A stretch of DNA of 64,000 nucleotides from an uncultured Flavobacteriaceae bacterium (lineage in GTDB: Bacteria; Bacteroidota; Bacteroidia; Flavobacteriales; Flavobacteriaceae). The position numbers were made by a program, and so were the translations under genes. The notes under the pieces are model-generated. The model did not search any database. It worked only from the letters and a program-made list of their open reading frames with translations, and had not been told where the DNA came from. Location of the stretch: positions 729,246-793,245 of the forward strand of contig CANNAN010000001.1 of NCBI GenBank assembly GCA_947502635.1. Direction: 5' to 3'. Shown piece by piece: positions 20,474-59,721 of this stretch (its first letter is position 1; each line of letters begins with the position of its first letter).

Positions 20474-21934
20474 ATGAGCACAGAAATAAGACAACTTCAA
20501 CCACAACAGCTTTGGACTAAATTTGCAGATTTAAATGCTGTACCAAGAGGATCTAAAAAAGAAGAACGTGTTATTGCGTTTATGAAAGATTTTGGTAAAA
20601 CACTAGGTTTAAATACCATTGAAGATGAAGTTGGAAATGTTATTATAAAAAAGCCAGCAACTTCTGGAATGGAGAGTAGAACGACCATTGTTATGCAATC
20701 TCATTTGGACATGGTGCATCAGAAGAATGGGGATACTAATTTTAATTTTGATACCCAAGGGATTGTAATGTATGTTGAGGGTGATTGGGTACGTGCCAAA
20801 GGAACAACTTTAGGAGCAGATAATGGTTTAGGAGTCGCTACTATAATGGCTATTTTGGAAAGTACAGATATTCCGCATCCTGCTATTGAAGCTTTATTTA
20901 CTATAGATGAAGAAACTGGTATGACAGGAGCTATGGGTTTAAAAGGCGGATTGCTCTCTGGAGGCATCCTTTTAAATTTGGATACAGAAGAAGATAATGA
21001 AATTGGTGTAGGTTGTGCAGGTGGTATTGATGTCACAGCGACAAGAACTTATAACGAAGAAGAAACTCCCGAATTTAAAATAGGATATAAGATTACTGTA
21101 AAAGGATTACAAGGTGGGCATTCGGGGATGCAAATTCATGAAGGTTTAGGGAATGCTAATAAAATAATGAATCGCGTATTATTTGATGGTTTTGAAAATT
21201 ACGGATTGAGAATTTCGGAAATTGATGGCGGGAGTTTACGTAATGCCATTCCTCGCGAAAGCAATGCTATAGTTGCTATTGATGCGGTTCATGAAGATGC
21301 TTTTTTATTAGAAATTGCTTTGATCTCTAATGTTCTTAAAAAGGAATTAAAAACGATGGAACCAGATTTAGAAATTAATATTTCTAAAATAGACACACCA
21401 AAGTATATTATGGACTTAGGGGTTCAGGAAGGATTGACCAGAGCTTTATATGCCGCTTATAATGGTGTTTACAGAATGAGTGCAGATATTCCTGAGTTGG
21501 TGGAAACATCAAATAATATTGCTAGGGTATTGGTTAAGGATGGGCATATTCATATTGGCTGTTTAACGCGTTCTTCTGTTGAAAGTTCTAAGATGGATCT
21601 GGCAAATACATTACGAGCAACTTTTGAATTAACAGGTTGCGAAGTAGAGTTTTCTGGTGATTATCCAGGATGGACACCTAATATGGATTCAGCTATCTTA
21701 AAGGTAATGACTGAATTGTATGAAGATCTGAATGATGAAAAACCACATGTAGCAGCGTGTCATGCTGGGCTAGAATGTGGTATTCTAGGAACAAATTATC
21801 CAGAAATGGATATGATTAGTTTTGGACCTAATATAAAAGGAGCACACTCACCCGATGAGCGAGTTCAAATATCTTCTGTTCAAAAATATTGGAAGTTTGT
21901 TTTGGAGATATTGAAGGGGATACCAGTTAAATAA
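20474..21934 (+). CDS. pepD: Aminoacyl-histidine dipeptidase (M20C)
   Basis: QSHLDMV, TLGADNGLG, DEETGMTGA, NLDTEED, HAGLECG, HSPDERV. TATCTTTG promoter box at 20434-20441. Confidence 0.95.
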   Translation: MSTEIRQLQPQQLWTKFADLNAVPRGSKKEERVIAFMKDFGKTLGLNTIEDEVGNVIIKKPATSGMESRTTIVMQSHLDMVHQKNGDTNFNFDTQGIVMYVEGDWVRAKGTTLGADNGLGVATIMAILESTDIPHPAIEALFTIDEETGMTGAMGLKGGLLSGGILLNLDTEEDNEIGVGCAGGIDVTATRTYNEEETPEFKIGYKITVKGLQGGHSGMQIHEGLGNANKIMNRVLFDGFENYGLRISEIDGGSLRNAIPRESNAIVAIDAVHEDAFLLEIALISNVLKKELKTMEPDLEINISKIDTPKYIMDLGVQEGLTRALYAAYNGVYRMSADIPELVETSNNIARVLVKDGHIHIGCLTRSSVESSKMDLANTLRATFELTGCEVEFSGDYPGWTPNMDSAILKVMTELYEDLNDEKPHVAACHAGLECGILGTNYPEMDMISFGPNIKGAHSPDERVQISSVQKYWKFVLEILKGIPVK

Positions 21935-21955
21935 AATTATTGGAAGAGATGTTTT

Positions 21956-22115
21956 GTTTAACATCTCGGCCGAAATTAATAGAAGTAAGCTTTAGGTTAG
22001 GTGCTTAGCCCATATTTTAATTTTGTTTTATCTTTTCTATCTAAAACCAGATTAAAAAATTTGGTGGACTAAGTTATTAAGCACTAACACCCATATTAAT
22101 TAGTCATTGTTGTGT
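21956..22115 (-). repeat. attC-like long imperfect hairpin (160 bp)
   Basis: On the - strand it starts ACACAAC 11 nt after the lipoprotein stop and ends GTTAAAC (GTTRRRY). Paired arms AATTAATA/TATTAATT, GTTAGGTGCTTA/TAAGCACTAAC, TTAGCCC/GGACTAA. Confidence 0.6.
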
Positions 22116-22126
22116 ATCGTGTCTTT

Positions 22127-22792
22127 TTATTTCATTCGATACTTAAAATCAGGAATTCCTCTTAAAAAAAGCGTGTCATCTATATATGCTCCAGCATTTA
22201 ATTTTCCTTCAAAAGTATCAAATTCAAATTCTCCATCAACCTCGTTATAATAAGAATAGTACATCATTCCAATTTGAATATTTGTAATCATTTGTGGATG
22301 CAAATAGGATTGGGGGGTAGAATTCTGATAATGGTTTGGAAGGATAACATCAAAAACAGATTCATGATTTTCGGAAAAGTATTTCAATACATATTGTTGG
22401 TTCGCTTTGAGTAATAAGTTGTTTTCTAATTCAACGTATTGAAACACACTCTCATTAGTTACATTAAGTTTCTTGCTTAAAACAATAGGTTCAGTTTCAT
22501 GTAAAAGCCCCCAATCACTGTAAGACTCAATAATTTCAATTTCATAATTACCCGCTGTAGCCATGCGTCCACCAACGGCTGTTATTTCGATATCTACGTG
22601 TGGTTTGAAATAGAATCCGCGTTTAGTTGCCTTATGTAGGTAATCACTATTCAATTCATTTATAGGTTCTATAACAATTTCTGAATCTTCCAAGAATAAT
22701 CCTTCTAACATTCCGTGAGGTTCAAGTATTTGCTCATCAGTATTATTACACGAGGTAACAAGTATTAGTAATAAAATACAAAGTTTTTTCAT
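22127..22792 (-). CDS. Hypothetical lipoprotein (possible beta-sandwich)
   Basis: Lipobox LVTSC, 221 aa. TATCTTTG box at 22850-22857 (- strand). Confidence 0.7.
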   Translation of the reverse strand: MKKLCILLLILVTSCNNTDEQILEPHGMLEGLFLEDSEIVIEPINELNSDYLHKATKRGFYFKPHVDIEITAVGGRMATAGNYEIEIIESYSDWGLLHETEPIVLSKKLNVTNESVFQYVELENNLLLKANQQYVLKYFSENHESVFDVILPNHYQNSTPQSYLHPQMITNIQIGMMYYSYYNEVDGEFEFDTFEGKLNAGAYIDDTLFLRGIPDFKYRMK

Positions 22793-22938
22793 TTTTTGAT
22801 ATGTCTTTAGTTCAAGTAGTTTTTTTGTACATTATACATAGACACAATACAAAGATAAAGTTCCGCTTCAATGAACTTTATTGATTGCTAAACGAAGTTA
22901 GTGGAAAATTTTTACAAAATCAAGGAGAATAATTATGT

Positions 22939-23163
22939 TTAAGGGACTGGGTCATAACCAGAGCCACCCCAGGGATGACAACTAAAAATACGCTTTAAAG
23001 CCAGTTTTCCGCCTTTAAATAAACCATGTTTTTTTAAAGCTTCTTTGGTGTAGTGCGAACATGTGGGGTGAAATCTACAAGTTGCAGGCGTTAAAGGTGA
23101 TATGAATATTTGATATATTTTTATCAAAAATAAAAACGGCGCAATGAGTAGTTTTTTTAACAT
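22939..23163 (-). CDS. yidD: Membrane protein insertion efficiency factor YidD
   Basis: [30 protein letters not shown]. Confidence 0.95.
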
Positions 23164-23251: not shown

Positions 23252-24733
23252 TTAATTAGTCGAAAAAGTCGTACCATCTTTACCGTCTTTGAGTTGAATG
23301 CCAACTTCCAAGAGCTCATCACGTATTTTATCAGACAAAGCAAAGTCTTTATTTGCTCTAGCCTCTTGTCTTAATTTAATTAATATATCTACAGCTCCAG
23401 ATAATTTATTGGTTCCAGAATCACTTTTAGTCTCATTTTCAAGACCTAAAACTTCAAAAACAAAATTATTGATGGTTGTTTTAAAAATATTTAAATCTTC
23501 TGCTAATATAGTTTCAGAGCCTTCTTTAATCTGATTGATGTATTTTGCAGCTTCAAACAAATGCGAAATTAAAATAGGAGAATTGAAATCGTCATTCATT
23601 GCATCATAACATTTCTGTTTCCATGCGTTAACATCTATCGTAGAAGCGTTAGAAGCTTTTAAATCGTCTAGAAGGTTAACAGCATCCATCAATCTATAAA
23701 ACCCTTTTTCGCTAGCTAATAAACCATCATCAGTTAAATCTAAAACACTACGGTAAGATGATTGCGCATTAAAAAAACGAATCACACTAGGCGCATAGGC
23801 TTTGCTGAAAAATTTGTTATTTCCAGATAATAATTCATCAGGATTAACAGTATTTCCTGTGGTTTTAGACATACGTTGTCCATTAAGCTCTAACATATTG
23901 GCATGCATCCAATACTTAACAGGTGATTTTCCTTTAGCAGCTTCGTTTTGAGCAATTTCACATTCGTGATGCGGGAATTTTAAATCCATACCACCACCAT
24001 GAATATCAAATTGATCGCCTAAGTATTTGGTACTCATTGCTGTACATTCTAAGTGCCATCCAGGGAAGCCATCACTCCAGGGGGAAGGCCAGCGCATAAT
24101 GTGCTGTGGTTCGGCTTTTTTCCAAAGAGCAAAGTCCTGCGGATTCTTTTTATCACTTTGTCCATCTAACTCACGCGTATTGTGAATCAAATCATCAAGC
24201 TTACGCTTACTTAGTATTCCGTAATCGTTAGTTTCATTAAATTTATGTACATCAAAATAAACAGAACCATTTATTTCATAGGCAAAGCCATTATTAATAA
24301 TACTTTTTATCAATTCAATTTGTTCAATGATATGACCAGTTGCTGTAGGTTCAATACTTGGCGGTAAAAAATTAAATATATTTAATATATTATGAAAATC
24401 AACTGTATAGCGCTGCACAACTTCCATCGGTTCAATTTGCTCTAAGCGCGCTTTCTTAGTGATTTTATCTTCACCAGCGTCAGCATCGTTTTCCAAATGA
24501 CCAGCATCAGTAATATTTCTAACATACCGTACTTTGTAACCTAAATGTTTTAGGTATCGAAATACCACATCAAAAGACATAAAGGTTCTTACATTACCCA
24601 AATGTACATTGCTATAAACAGTTGGACCACAAACATACATTCCAACATAACCTTCGTTAATTGGTTCGAATGTTTCTTTTTTGCCCGTAAGTGAATTGTA
24701 TAATTTTATTTGCTGATGCTGAAAAAGTGGCAT
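23252..24733 (-). CDS. cysS: Cysteine--tRNA ligase
   Basis: [12 protein letters not shown] (HIGH), [25 protein letters not shown] (KMSKS). Confidence 0.97.
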
Positions 24734-25625: not shown

Positions 25626-27164
25626 TTATATATTAAAACTTAATGATAATGTAATGTTCGAATTTGTTCGATCTATATTTGCTGTATCAACTAATCCAAC
25701 ACTGTACAAAGGAGTAGAAGTGGAGCGTTCAGATTGGTCGTAAGTAAGGTCTAATTTTGTGTTTCCAAAATTATAGCCAACTCCTAAAGAATATCCGTTT
25801 AAATCGCCTATGGTAAAACCGTCTTTATATGGGCTTTCTTCATAGCGGTAACCGCCTCTAAAGCTAAATTGTTCATATTTGTATTCACCACCAATTCTAT
25901 AGGTAGCAGCATCGGTTAAAATATTACTTATAATGTCGTTTTGATCTGCAAAAAACGAATCTGAGGTAGGTTTAAACTTTGTTTGACTATAATCTTTACG
26001 AGAATAATCAAAACTAATTAAACCCTGTTTTCCAAAAACGTAAGCTAAGCTTCCTGTTAATTTTGCAGGTGTTTGTAATTTATATCGTGGATAGATATTT
26101 ATAACATCAGGGTTTACAACTTGTGTTGCATTAGAACCAGCATCATTCCTTACAGTAGCTAAGTACTGTGTTGTTTCTTCCTCAATGGTATACCAGATAG
26201 GAGAATCATAAGTAATACCAACTCTAAATTCATTTGATAGTTTCATGATACCTCCTAATTGAAAAGAAAAACCATTACCAGTAGTCGTCAAATTATTTTC
26301 AAATTCGATACTGTTAACAATCGATCCTACATTTGAATTGTTTTCAAATAATAAATTAGTTCGTTCATAGTCAATAAAATGAGAATTTAAATTTAACCCT
26401 AGATATAAATTATCTTCATATTGAGTGGCTATATTAAATGTTACTTTTCCATTATAACCTCTAGAGAAATGAGAATAATCATGGTCAAAATTTCCTGAGT
26501 TTACATTAGCAAAATATGTTGTATTAGCATCATTATTAATATCCTCTGGTTGAAGAATGAACGATTCAAAACCTAAAAATGCTTGTTGATGAGCAAACCC
26601 ATAAACAGCTCCTATGTCTCTATAAGCTTCACTTAATGACTCACCTGGTAAAGCAGATATTTCATCTAATCTTTTACCATTTGCATAATCATAAAAATAA
26701 CTAGCAATGGAATTACTAAAATTACCATCATCATTTGTATTTAAGCCACTTGCTCTCCAATTAGTGTCATGATTATTAGTTCTTTCGTAGGCAATAGCAA
26801 TTGTAAATTTTCGCCATGGGGAATTATTATTACTTGCGAATACAAATGCTGCACCACCTTGATTGATGTCAAAATTAGAATCGTTAGAATTATTTAATCC
26901 ATTAAAATATTGCGTTTTATTATCGGTATCTGTATTTAATACTGTAAAAGAAGCATGACTTCTACTAAAAACAGCAGATCCAGCAGGGTTTAAACTAACA
27001 GCACTCATATCGCCTCCTAATGCACCAAAAGCACCGCTCAATGCTCTAAAACGAGCCGATCCTTGAATTTCATCTTGAGAAAATCTGACAGCATCACCAA
27101 TTTCCTGAGCGTAAATTGTAGACATAGATAGCACACCTATGAATAGTAAACATAACTTTTTCAT
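25626..27164 (-). CDS. OmpP1/FadL-family outer-membrane beta-barrel
   Basis: Signal peptide, GSARFRALSGAFGALGGD, NPAG, C-terminal aromatic LSFNI. Confidence 0.85.
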   Translation of the reverse strand: MKKLCLLFIGVLSMSTIYAQEIGDAVRFSQDEIQGSARFRALSGAFGALGGDMSAVSLNPAGSAVFSRSHASFTVLNTDTDNKTQYFNGLNNSNDSNFDINQGGAAFVFASNNNSPWRKFTIAIAYERTNNHDTNWRASGLNTNDDGNFSNSIASYFYDYANGKRLDEISALPGESLSEAYRDIGAVYGFAHQQAFLGFESFILQPEDINNDANTTYFANVNSGNFDHDYSHFSRGYNGKVTFNIATQYEDNLYLGLNLNSHFIDYERTNLLFENNSNVGSIVNSIEFENNLTTTGNGFSFQLGGIMKLSNEFRVGITYDSPIWYTIEEETTQYLATVRNDAGSNATQVVNPDVINIYPRYKLQTPAKLTGSLAYVFGKQGLISFDYSRKDYSQTKFKPTSDSFFADQNDIISNILTDAATYRIGGEYKYEQFSFRGGYRYEESPYKDGFTIGDLNGYSLGVGYNFGNTKLDLTYDQSERSTSTPLYSVGLVDTANIDRTNSNITLSLSFNI

Positions 27165-31027: not shown

Positions 31028-31106
31028 AGTTTCGTAATTCTGTTCTGAAATTGTATTATGGTTTAATCATAGTTAGTGATTGGCTTTATTTTACTGGAAT
31101 AATTAT

Positions 31107-31299
31107 CTATAACTTTAAATATATGGCAAGCAGGGCAAAAAACAAGCGATTATTTTCAGTTTAGCCACAAGCCAAATCTTTTATGTTTTGTTTTAATTTT
31201 TCTCTTTTAATACCAAATCAAAAGATTTGGCACTTCGAAAATAGACAATAATCGTTCGACTAAACACTAATCACCTTATTTGCTATACATGTGTTTGTA
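31107..31299 (-). repeat. attC-like long imperfect hairpin (193 bp), homologous to 21956-22115
   Basis: On the - strand TACAAAC ... GTTATAG ends. Perfect 12-bp inverted repeat GCCAAATCTTTT (31171) / AAAAGATTTGGC (31220). Outer arms ATATGGCAA/TTGCTATAC. Confidence 0.6.
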
Positions 31300-31309
31300 A
31301 TTTTTAATT

Positions 31310-31822
31310 TCAATCCATCCAAGGATAATCAACAATAAATCCAAATTTATTCAATTTTTGAAAGTCATCTTCGGTCAAATCGTTTTCAAAATCAATTGTT
31401 TCTCCATTTATTAAATCAGTTAGAATTTGTTTAGATTCAAGTGTTCCTTTATCTGTCATTTTTTTCAAAAGTGATACCATTGATTTCAAGTTGAAATTTT
31501 CACTTTTAACAAATGATAAAATAATTTTAGAAGTATCTTTTTCTAAATAAGGATCTCCATATTTTTCAAATGATTCGATTGAGTCCTCAACAAATCGACC
31601 AGAACCTGTCTGAAACAATTTTCCATCAGTTTTAGAAACTATAGTCGGCCCTTGTCCAATTGCAATATCTTCAATTTTTTTAGATTCAAGGTATTTGTCC
31701 GATTGATAAAAAACAGCAAAACAAGTTTCCGATTCCATAGTAGATTCTGCAATAACAGAGAAACCTTTTAAGGTCTCCGTTAAATGGACTTGAACTAGTT
31801 TTTTAGCTTCTCTTTTAGTCAT
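31310..31822 (-). CDS. YrhB/Imm35-like protein (putative immunity protein)
   Basis: FAVFYQSDKYLE...IGQGPTIVSKTDGKLFQTGS resembles the YrhB/Imm35 pattern. Confidence 0.6.
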   Translation of the reverse strand: MTKREAKKLVQVHLTETLKGFSVIAESTMESETCFAVFYQSDKYLESKKIEDIAIGQGPTIVSKTDGKLFQTGSGRFVEDSIESFEKYGDPYLEKDTSKIILSFVKSENFNLKSMVSLLKKMTDKGTLESKQILTDLINGETIDFENDLTEDDFQKLNKFGFIVDYPWMD

Positions 31823-59454: not shown

Positions 59455-59574
59455 TTACAGGACAGAAGACTAAAAGTTAAGAAAAAATCAGAATTATGGT
59501 TCTTAGACGGTTCATTTCTCAAATTAGGTATAAAATATGTAGTTAATAGTAACTACATATTTTATATATGCGTA

Positions 59575-59721
59575 CTAAGATAATACATCTTTTATCTGCA
59601 TAAAGTTATTTGTAGTTACATGAGTATATATTTTTGTAATTTCAGTAGAGTTATGACCTAATAAATACTGAATGTAACGAGTATCTGTACTACTTTCTAA
59701 GAGATTTTCTGCAAAACAGCA
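59575..59721 (-). pseudogene. C-terminal remnant of a tyrosine recombinase (IntI/XerD-like)
   Basis: My translation CCFAENLLESSTDTRYIQYLLGHNSTEITKIYTHVTTNNFMQIKDVLS* matches RHSFATHLLExGxDLRYIQxLLGHxSxxTTxIYTHV. The HxxR box is lost and there is no start codon. Confidence 0.8.

Follow-up and report, generated by a model that had tools for sequence, protein, structure and literature searches.

The pepD-yidD gap and its hairpin

The subject of this analysis is an orphan lipoprotein gene, together with the 160-nt hairpin directly behind it, located between pepD and yidD in a contig of an uncultured Flavobacteriaceae bacterium. The window is the whole 64,000-nt stretch of that contig which was analysed, and all coordinates given here are window positions. 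Based upon open reading frames (ORFs), comparison with relatives, profile searches and predicted folds, the locus contains the following features.

20474-21934, + strand: pepD (dipeptidase), the conserved left border, from the ORF and comparison with relatives
21946-21967: small 8-bp hairpin, GAGATGTT / AACATCTC, overlapping R', from predicted folds
21956-22115, - strand: attC-like recombination site (160 nt), from the nhmmer family profile, the fold and ends aligned by eye
21956-21962, - strand: R' core GTTAAAC, which fits GTTRRRY exactly and is homologous to the invariant ...CGTT 3' end of the site family
21971-22088, - strand: inner variable part of the site with nested hairpins, the best conserved portion of the window copy
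22109-22115, - strand: R'' inverse core ACACAAC, which fits RYYYAAC exactly
22127-22129, - strand: lipoprotein stop codon TAA, followed by an 11-nt spacer and then ACACAAC
22127-22792, - strand: orphan lipoprotein ORF, 221 aa, with a signal peptide ending in LVTSC
21962-22847, - strand: putative whole cassette, 886 nt, TTGTGT...ORF...ACACAAC...hairpin...G, from its junctions and ends
22842-22848, - strand: ATTGTGT, directly after TATCTTTG; 22848 is the last A of the promoter module
22850-22938, - strand: repeated promoter module of ~90 nt, with the Bacteroidota-type -7 box TATCTTTG at 22850-22857
22939-23163, - strand: yidD, the conserved right border, from the ORF and comparison with relatives

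The initial annotation, made from the letters of the window, had regarded the hairpin as an attC-like site on the strength of the stop codon, the 11-nt spacer, ACACAAC and GTTAAAC, and of ATTGTGT lying directly after the promoter box TATCTTTG upstream of the gene. All of these are present at the places that it gave. It had further described nested paired arms with one extrahelical G. In the predicted fold the plus-strand sequence GTTAGGTGCTTA, near 21996-22007, does pair with TAAGCACTAAC, near 22077-22087, leaving one bulged G, but this G sits in the inner, distal variable part and not in the L box, where the extrahelical bases of attC sites lie. The innermost arms of the site are 22012-22030 and 22042-22060, and the corresponding helix of the site family (helix 3) covaries. 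Folding of the bottom strand had been recommended in the same annotation. Measured against dinucleotide shuffles, the 196-nt intergenic stretch gave z-scores of -2.5 for the minus and -2.6 for the plus strand as DNA, and of -3.0 as RNA.

A stable RNA fold between convergent genes, where termination is needed, would also suit a feature that acts chiefly in the transcript, be it a terminator, a stabilising 3' untranslated region or a small RNA, with its likeness to attC being secondary. No intrinsic terminator was revealed by a terminator scan of 21935-22126, and the terminator was rejected as a candidate since no T run follows any stem. The 8-bp hairpin at 21946-21967 was likewise not flagged by the scan (no T run stands behind it); a different small hairpin occupies the equivalent position in G003, one of the G-numbered genomes compared at pepD-yidD, all of which are congeners of the window genome, itself a Flavivirga. 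Searches of Rfam gave no relevant match for the region (E up to 10) or for the whole window.

A family of ~195-nt sites and the recombinase beside its arrays

When the own genome was searched with the intergenic stretch, partial matches of ~80% identity were found on five other contigs. The full elements are ~195 nt long (192-200 nt), start with ...AAC-A(C/A)T.TATA... and end with ...TTAA-CGTT, and a small gene starts within 10-30 nt. An iterated nhmmer search of the same genome collected at least 30 copies (about 30), many of them solitary in intergenic regions and many at contig ends. The full-length family profile matches the window site at 21971-22088 (E 7.5e-12, envelope 21951-22108). The ends of the window site are too diverged for the profile, and by eye they are homologous to the subfamily represented by C61 and G002_19648: in this alignment the 5' end, AATGACTA..ATTAATATGGG, corresponds to AATGACTATAGTTAATACGGG of the subfamily and the 3' end, GGCCGAGATGTT, to AGCCGAGACGTT. 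Relative to the family, the 160-nt window copy has an internal deletion of ~20 nt. The profile match and the aligned ends indicate that the hairpin is a diverged, partly deleted member of this ~195-nt site family of Flavobacteriaceae. At four sites of the own genome (C28:~10550, C12:~134500, C61:~270 and C2:~25790) the sequence ...GTTGTGCAACAGCCAC abuts R'', turning AAC into CAC; it has the appearance of a terminus belonging to some other element with the family site as its target.

In the family alignment, conservation begins at AAC and ends at GTT, both of which are nearly invariant, and the bases outside them vary. The consensus of 29 sequences comprises an R box, an L stem and a distal long-range helix. 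In this structure 85% of cells pair, compared with 33-46% when the partners are slid by one to three columns, a control somewhat favoured by the fact that the fuller consensus structure was derived from the bottom-strand minimum-free-energy consensus of the same sequences. Twenty-three pairs are changed on both sides, and none of 500 shuffles reached the observed values. RNAalifold, applied to the top strand, recovered the L stem only, with compensatory changes in 8 of its 10 pairs. The resulting family fold consists of a 3-7 bp R box, an internal loop, and an L stem of 17 bp that covaries and bulges one base on the R''-L'' arm. In two columns of the L stem the top strand has a conserved A·C (24/28 and 28/28 sequences); read on the bottom strand, these are G·T. 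For a role in the transcript these columns are awkward, since the mRNA would carry them as unpaired mismatches and only the opposite DNA strand would offer G·T. The family's conservation, moreover, ends exactly at AAC/GTT, and its flanks follow a rule of DNA recombination, so that a primary function in the transcript appears very improbable.

That rule is seen in relatives, where the sites form arrays. In G002, 20 kb contain 12 co-oriented sites whose neighbours are separated by one to three ORFs, and G016 has seven family sites in its array; in G010, G008 and G006 the sites begin directly after a co-directional tyrosine recombinase gene. Among named genomes, those of Cellulophaga, Aquimarina, Sediminicola, Polaribacter and Winogradskyella also contain family sites that lie downstream of a recombinase and are co-oriented. 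The bases after the GTT of one site are the reverse complement (9-10 nt, exact or near-exact) of the bases before the next AAC in 10 of 14 adjacent pairs, comprising 7/11 in G002, 2/2 in G010 and 1/1 in G006. One example is GTTACCTGC, which is followed at the next site by GCAGGTAAC. The pair in G010 that is attI-like sets the post-recombinase sequence CCGTTG|TTAGCAAAT against the first R'', ATTTGCTAAC. Such complementarity between the tail and head of neighbouring sites is the mark left by circular cassettes that open at G|TT.

At each of the seven sites in the array of G016 (L059-L061, G016:C1:520001-572000), a group II intron (RF02001) has inserted at R'' in the opposite strand. The intron codes for a 426-aa reverse transcriptase, and several of its copies are truncated. 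From this position and orientation, the bottom-strand hairpin is the 5' exon of the introns. Group IIC-attC introns of classical integrons likewise insert at the site on the opposite strand, and the arrangement in G016 appears to resemble theirs.

Dispersal alone could be explained differently. Copies numbering about 30, many of them solitary between genes or at contig ends, and each forming a long imperfect palindrome, might represent a non-autonomous palindromic repeat spread by transposition, comparable to miniature inverted-repeat transposable elements (MITEs) or repetitive extragenic palindromic (REP) sequences, next to which the lipoprotein gene came independently. The initial annotation had pointed to MITE-like target duplications as evidence against a recombination site. 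Across 30 copies, the window site included, none were found, the mean shared flank k-mer being 2.97 as against 3.10 +/- 0.15 for shuffled partners, and the MITE reading was rejected on this absence. The flanks of the copies obey the cassette rule, with 9-10 nt of complementarity between tail and head; the copies point the same way as the genes and as a recombinase upstream of them; and the homologue of the lipoprotein gene at locus L069, described below, keeps R'' and the 5' end together with a different hairpin body. We therefore consider a transposed repeat to be a far-fetched origin for these sites.

The recombinase associated with the arrays was compared with IntI, the integrase of integrons. 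The cut-off of TIGR02249 (IntI), 265 bits, was never reached in the own genome and 40 relatives; the array-linked recombinases score 180-209 bits against this profile and are matched in two pieces. Their best NCBIfam match is XerA_Arch, at 188-228 bits with a cut-off of 220. Among solved structures, archaeal XerA (4a8e, 5hxy) is matched in a single piece and VchIntIA (2a3v) in two, where profile positions 27-197 correspond to IntI4 residues 9-179 and positions 221-293 to residues 246-318. Between the two pieces there are 23 profile positions where IntI4 has 66 residues (180-245), that is ~43 residues fewer, at the place of the IntI additional domain. These alignments indicate that the array recombinase is XerA-like and lacks the additional domain that IntI has around patch III. 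At E < 1e-30 the family numbers more than 7,800 proteins, and the sources label them only 'tyrosine recombinase' or 'XerD'. The recombinase of G006 is 92% identical to one from F. amylovorans, and the family reaches metagenome-assembled genomes (MAGs) of Bacteroidales, with ~50% identity to the Flavivirga type.

The array recombinase is always preceded, in divergent orientation (G016, G010, G008 and G006), by an ORF of 120-150 aa with an N-terminal zinc ribbon, CxxC...GRxDKKFCSxxC. This ORF persists three times in the own genome without a recombinase (C24:1543-1896, C13:119781-120089 and C18:5095-5415). Perhaps it specifies an accessory factor.

Junctions, cargo and origin of the proposed lipoprotein cassette

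A resident promoter upstream of the cassette had been proposed in the initial annotation. The cassette does start right behind the TATCTTTG module, but the module is itself a repeat of ~90 nt. There are five copies in the own genome (including C3:23241-23345, 24647-24730 and 27026-27133, and C1:260326-260410) and many in relatives, with 85-90% identity. Its pattern, TTGA.TTTGTAAAA.TTTTC.ACTAACTTCGTT ... ATTGAAACGGAA.TTTATCTTTG, stands ahead of unrelated accessory genes, and variable small hairpins are inserted within copies of the module. Conservation stops at ...TATCTTTG(C/T)A (...TTTG(C/T)A), and the TT of the cassette (22847-22846) are the next bases. The module may serve as a landing pad resembling attI, or else be the promoter of a regulon, and its TATCTTTG box, a predicted promoter, could drive the lipoprotein cassette. 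YidD ends in ...DPVP* where the promoter module follows its gene (own genome, G003, G004, G005 and G009; compared in L039-L048) and has an extra acidic tail (EKEK, EKEDD, DKDDN and others) where no module adjoins. From this comparison, the arrival of the module seems to have truncated yidD.

The start of the cassette, TT-GTGT, is the reverse complement of its own R'', ACAC-AA. For the four variable bases the probability of this match by chance is ~1/256, the register being set independently, by the point at which the promoter module stops. Towards pepD, from the TT of TTAAAC onward, 38/50 positions are identical between the own genome and G003, as against 23/50 on the cassette side. With identity dropping at TTAAAC, the homology between the two genomes breaks at G|TT, as predicted by cassette exchange. 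At the same locus G003 contains three cassettes of different cargo, each of which starts at the promoter-module boundary with 9 nt of complement to its own R''. The upstream junction is A|TT in the own genome and in G003, and G|TT in the case of L069; since TT is constant and the preceding base varies, the crossover would fall directly after the first base of the triplet. In the window the exact crossover point would be G (21962) | TT (21961-21960).

The cargo itself is an orphan. A search of Pfam with the lipoprotein gave only a weak, sub-threshold match to DUF4082 and no immunity family, and no homologue was found in 300 Flavobacteriaceae genomes. Among 5.8 billion proteins there is a single homologue, P0002, which shows 52% identity and is encoded in a distant, GC-richer MAG (L069). 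Three nucleotides after its stop codon comes TACACACAAC, which includes ACACAAC, then a hairpin of ~140 nt, and then GTTATAA. Some 148 nt upstream of its ATG lies G|TTGTGTGTA, a 10-nt complement of its own R'' with the same TTGTGT start. The P0002 hairpin folds better on the bottom strand (-25.2 vs -21.3 kcal/mol). These ends indicate that the lipoprotein gene travels as a cassette, with the same two ends and unrelated site bodies. An AlphaFold2 model of the lipoprotein, built with the single homologue, was unusable (mean predicted local distance difference test score, pLDDT, 42.6). The GC content of the cassette, 31.0% against 31.4% for the window, bears no foreign mark.

That a single cassette is closed by the hairpin, as the initial annotation had it, is upheld by the cassette with the same ends around the homologue, by the break in homology at G|TT, and by the array rule. 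Four signals each exceed chance, namely the z-score of the fold, the E-value of the family profile, the complement at the cassette ends and the ends of the homologue, and on these we regard the observation of the hairpin and its ends as confirmed and its reading as a recombination site as supported.

The pepD-yidD gap is a hypervariable hot spot within the genus. Its size is ~21 nt in G011, ~46 nt in G007, ~555 nt in G001 and G008, ~1 kb in the own genome, and 1.3-19 kb in the others. In G008 and G001 (L041, L042) the gap contains a gene with a GIY-YIG domain, flanked by ~95-nt direct repeats (CGTCATTACGAGGAA...CGCAGTGACG); this is another kind of small mobile element exploiting the hot spot. 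The gap of G003 (L046, G003:C1:4875000-4884100) holds seven genes on the yidD strand, which are split by tandem copies of one unit. Each unit runs from a site through G|TTAAAC, a small hairpin and a pseudo-fragment of the 3' end of pepD to the promoter module. In G003 the pad itself has multiplied.

In such a hot spot, the site family may be real and the cassette may yet have entered by homologous recombination of the flanks, through transformation or transduction. The content of the gap is unrelated in every congener, including the GIY-YIG element and islands of 4-19 kb; the tandem units of G003, with their fragments of the pepD end, suggest unequal or Campbell-type recombination; and the own gap opens with a partial duplicate of the pepD end. 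The boundaries tell otherwise. The cassette is delimited exactly by the end of the promoter module and by G|TTAAAC, where homology to G003 resumes, and the three cassettes of G003 share both boundaries with different cargo, as site-specific exchange predicts. Entry by exchange of flanks is, in our estimation, unlikely.

We propose, with a probability of roughly 0.8, that the lipoprotein gene and its trailing hairpin are one cassette of an integron-like gene-capture system of marine Flavobacteriaceae, and that this cassette is now a fossil. In relatives, a XerA-like tyrosine recombinase heads arrays of co-oriented cassettes, each closed by a ~195-nt site. Folded on its bottom strand, the site would comprise an R box (AAC/GTT), then an unpaired spacer, a long L stem and, distally, a variable part, and crossover between G and TT would cause each cassette to start with TT plus bases complementing its own R''. 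One such cassette would have been deposited outside any array, in the pepD-yidD gap, between the last A of the repeated promoter module and TTAAAC on the pepD side. The own genome has lost the recombinase, the outer stem has decayed, and the cassette would thereby have become fixed. The data above show the family membership, the covariation, the array rule, the position of the recombinase beside the sites in relatives, the missing IntI domain, the cassette around the homologue, the break in homology at G|TT and the decay; we infer the folding of the single strand in vivo, the exact crossover point, the identity of the acting enzyme, the activity of the promoter and the time of insertion.

Several observations weigh against this proposal. 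The outer R/L arms of the window copy are worth only -6.4 kcal/mol, compared with -15.5 +/- 3.3 for the family, and 38% of shuffled arms match that energy, so their pairing is no better than shuffled. Across the family, folding of whole sites shows but a slight strand bias (mean -25.4 kcal/mol for the bottom and -24.4 for the top strand, p = 0.05); because this asymmetry is weak, the argument for the bottom strand is carried by the conserved A·C / G·T columns. The claim that the 5' end of the cassette complements its own R'' stands for TTGTGT/ACACAA, but this is a mere 6 nt, and the triplet at the upstream junction is ATT instead of GTT. The site bodies of the two homologous cassettes, in the window and L069, have no detectable similarity beyond R''. 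In the empty-site comparison which the initial annotation had called for, the homology to G003 breaks at G|TT, but an exact empty pad, in which the promoter module abuts TTAAAC, was not found in 300 genomes, where the pattern TTTATCTTTGYATTAAAC gave only generic promoter-box matches at near the control rate. The 'empty' congeners G011 and G007 are altogether without the promoter module. Other elements, such as the GIY-YIG element of G001 and G008, also occupy the hot spot, which leaves room for arrival by homologous flank exchange. Finally, the own genome has no intact array-type recombinase, and nothing shows that the window site ever recombined there.

What the own genome has retained of the recombinase are C-terminal relics only, at C27:826-1074, C12:1699-1852 and 59581-59718 of the window, none of them near the lipoprotein cassette. 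Given these relics and the decayed outer stem, the window site is better described as a fossil than as an active site. The relic in the window, and a second member of the site family, are located as follows.

31103-31295, - strand: second, full-length family copy in the window (nhmmer E 2.8e-35), which closes an Imm35-like gene
31310-31822: Imm35-like gene (Imm35 26.8 bits, just below the cut-off of 27.5)
59581-59718, - strand: C-terminal recombinase relic, 46 aa (tblastn 52-59% identity to the G008/G010 recombinases; it matches the C-terminal piece of TIGR02249)

The outer arms of the site at 31103-31295 are likewise weak (-6.7 kcal/mol), and we read both solitary copies in the window as fossil cassettes which became fixed after loss of the enzyme. 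The solitary cassette at 31103-31822 has the R'' TTACAAAC, which shows no complement to GTTGGCA ahead of the ATG, and its upstream junction departs from the rule. Within 59535-59718, a perfect palindrome, AAAATATGTAGTTA/TAACTACATATTTT, comes after the recombinase relic (...LLGHNSTEITKIYTHV...). Behind the intact recombinase of G010 there is likewise a palindrome and then CCGTTG|TTAGC. Palindrome and CCGTTG|TTAGC may be part of attI.

Comparison with known systems

A literature search for integron-like systems in Flavobacteriia found nothing specific. IntegronFinder 2.0 lists Bacteroidetes with only In0 elements and a single complete integron, in Salinibacter, and the phylum is regarded as nearly integron-free; the program also defines integrase-less CALIN and single-attC remnants (PMC9024848). 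Integron integrases are defined by their additional domain, which, according to Messier and Roy (2001) as cited in PMC9668308, is necessary for IntI activity.

Several properties are shared with classical integrons, the sedentary chromosomal ones included. Behind every short, promoterless ORF stands an imperfect hairpin site bounded by RYYYAAC...GTTRRRY; arrays are co-oriented and adjoin a tyrosine recombinase; the pairing is biased to the bottom strand; the 5' end of a cassette complements its own R'', implying circular cassettes and a G|TT crossover; and solitary, decayed sites are found outside arrays. The Flavobacteriaceae recombinase, however, is ~43 residues short at the IntI additional domain and is co-directional with the cassettes, and the sites, with 160-200 nt and a conserved distal part, are long for attC, whose usual length is 57-141 nt. 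Membership of the classical integrons was rejected because the IntI domain is absent from the array-linked recombinases. The designation of the hairpin as an attC-type site holds for its RYYYAAC/GTTRRRY ends, for the family rule and for the covariation, but not in the classical sense of site length and enzyme.

The rAID-1 (recombinase-associated acquired interbacterial defence) arrays of gut Bacteroidales begin at the 5' end with a XerD-family recombinase, behind which orphan immunity genes lie in the same direction; their intergenic repeats were called 'reminiscent of integrons' (bioRxiv 10.1101/471110; PMC12247911). They were delimited by a recombinase at least 44% identical to BF9343_RS08045 of B. 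fragilis and at least two co-directional short downstream genes (Ross et al. 2019). Compared by description only, rAID-1 and the Flavobacteriaceae system occur in the same phylum and have in common the 5' tyrosine recombinase, the co-directional short orphan genes and the repetitive intergenic motifs; one of the window cassettes is Imm35-like (just below the cut-off). They differ in their sites: the descriptions of rAID-1 speak of motifs only, and of neither a ~195-nt folded site nor a G|TT rule. The cargo of rAID-1 is immunity genes, whereas most cargo of the Flavobacteriaceae family sites is without any family, and the window locus is a single gene in a solitary cassette without a recombinase.

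More tentatively, and at slightly less than even odds, we suggest that Flavobacteriaceae, and probably much of the Bacteroidota including the rAID-1 arrays, run a second integron lineage, with ~195-nt sites and a XerA-like recombinase that never had or has lost the IntI domain. Such a lineage would also seed single cassettes at promoter-bearing pads (...TTTGYA|TT...), which could multiply in tandem, as in G003. Integron recombination is held to depend on the IntI domain gripping the extrahelical bases of attC; here, the rules of integrons, at the level of sequence, go with a plain Xer-type recombinase. If the suggestion is true, folded-site capture would not require the IntI additional domain, and the A|TT junctions would be genetic evidence placing the crossover right after the first base of the triplet. 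The present locus adds single cassettes which land in the core genome behind a reusable promoter module, and a cargo gene that has kept its R'' and 5' end in a distant organism although the site body there is unrelated. In annotation, the suggestion would give meaning to thousands of genes labelled 'XerD/tyrosine recombinase' and to the orphan genes downstream of them, and would supply the gut rAID-1 arrays with a mechanistic model.

A further parallel is offered by the minimal mobile elements of Neisseria, hot spots between conserved genes that are exchanged by homologous recombination. The pepD-yidD gap resembles them in holding different genes in each species between conserved flanks; unlike them, the window cassette has site-specific junctions and a recombination site of its own. 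The closest published systems are integrons and the rAID-1 arrays of Bacteroidales.

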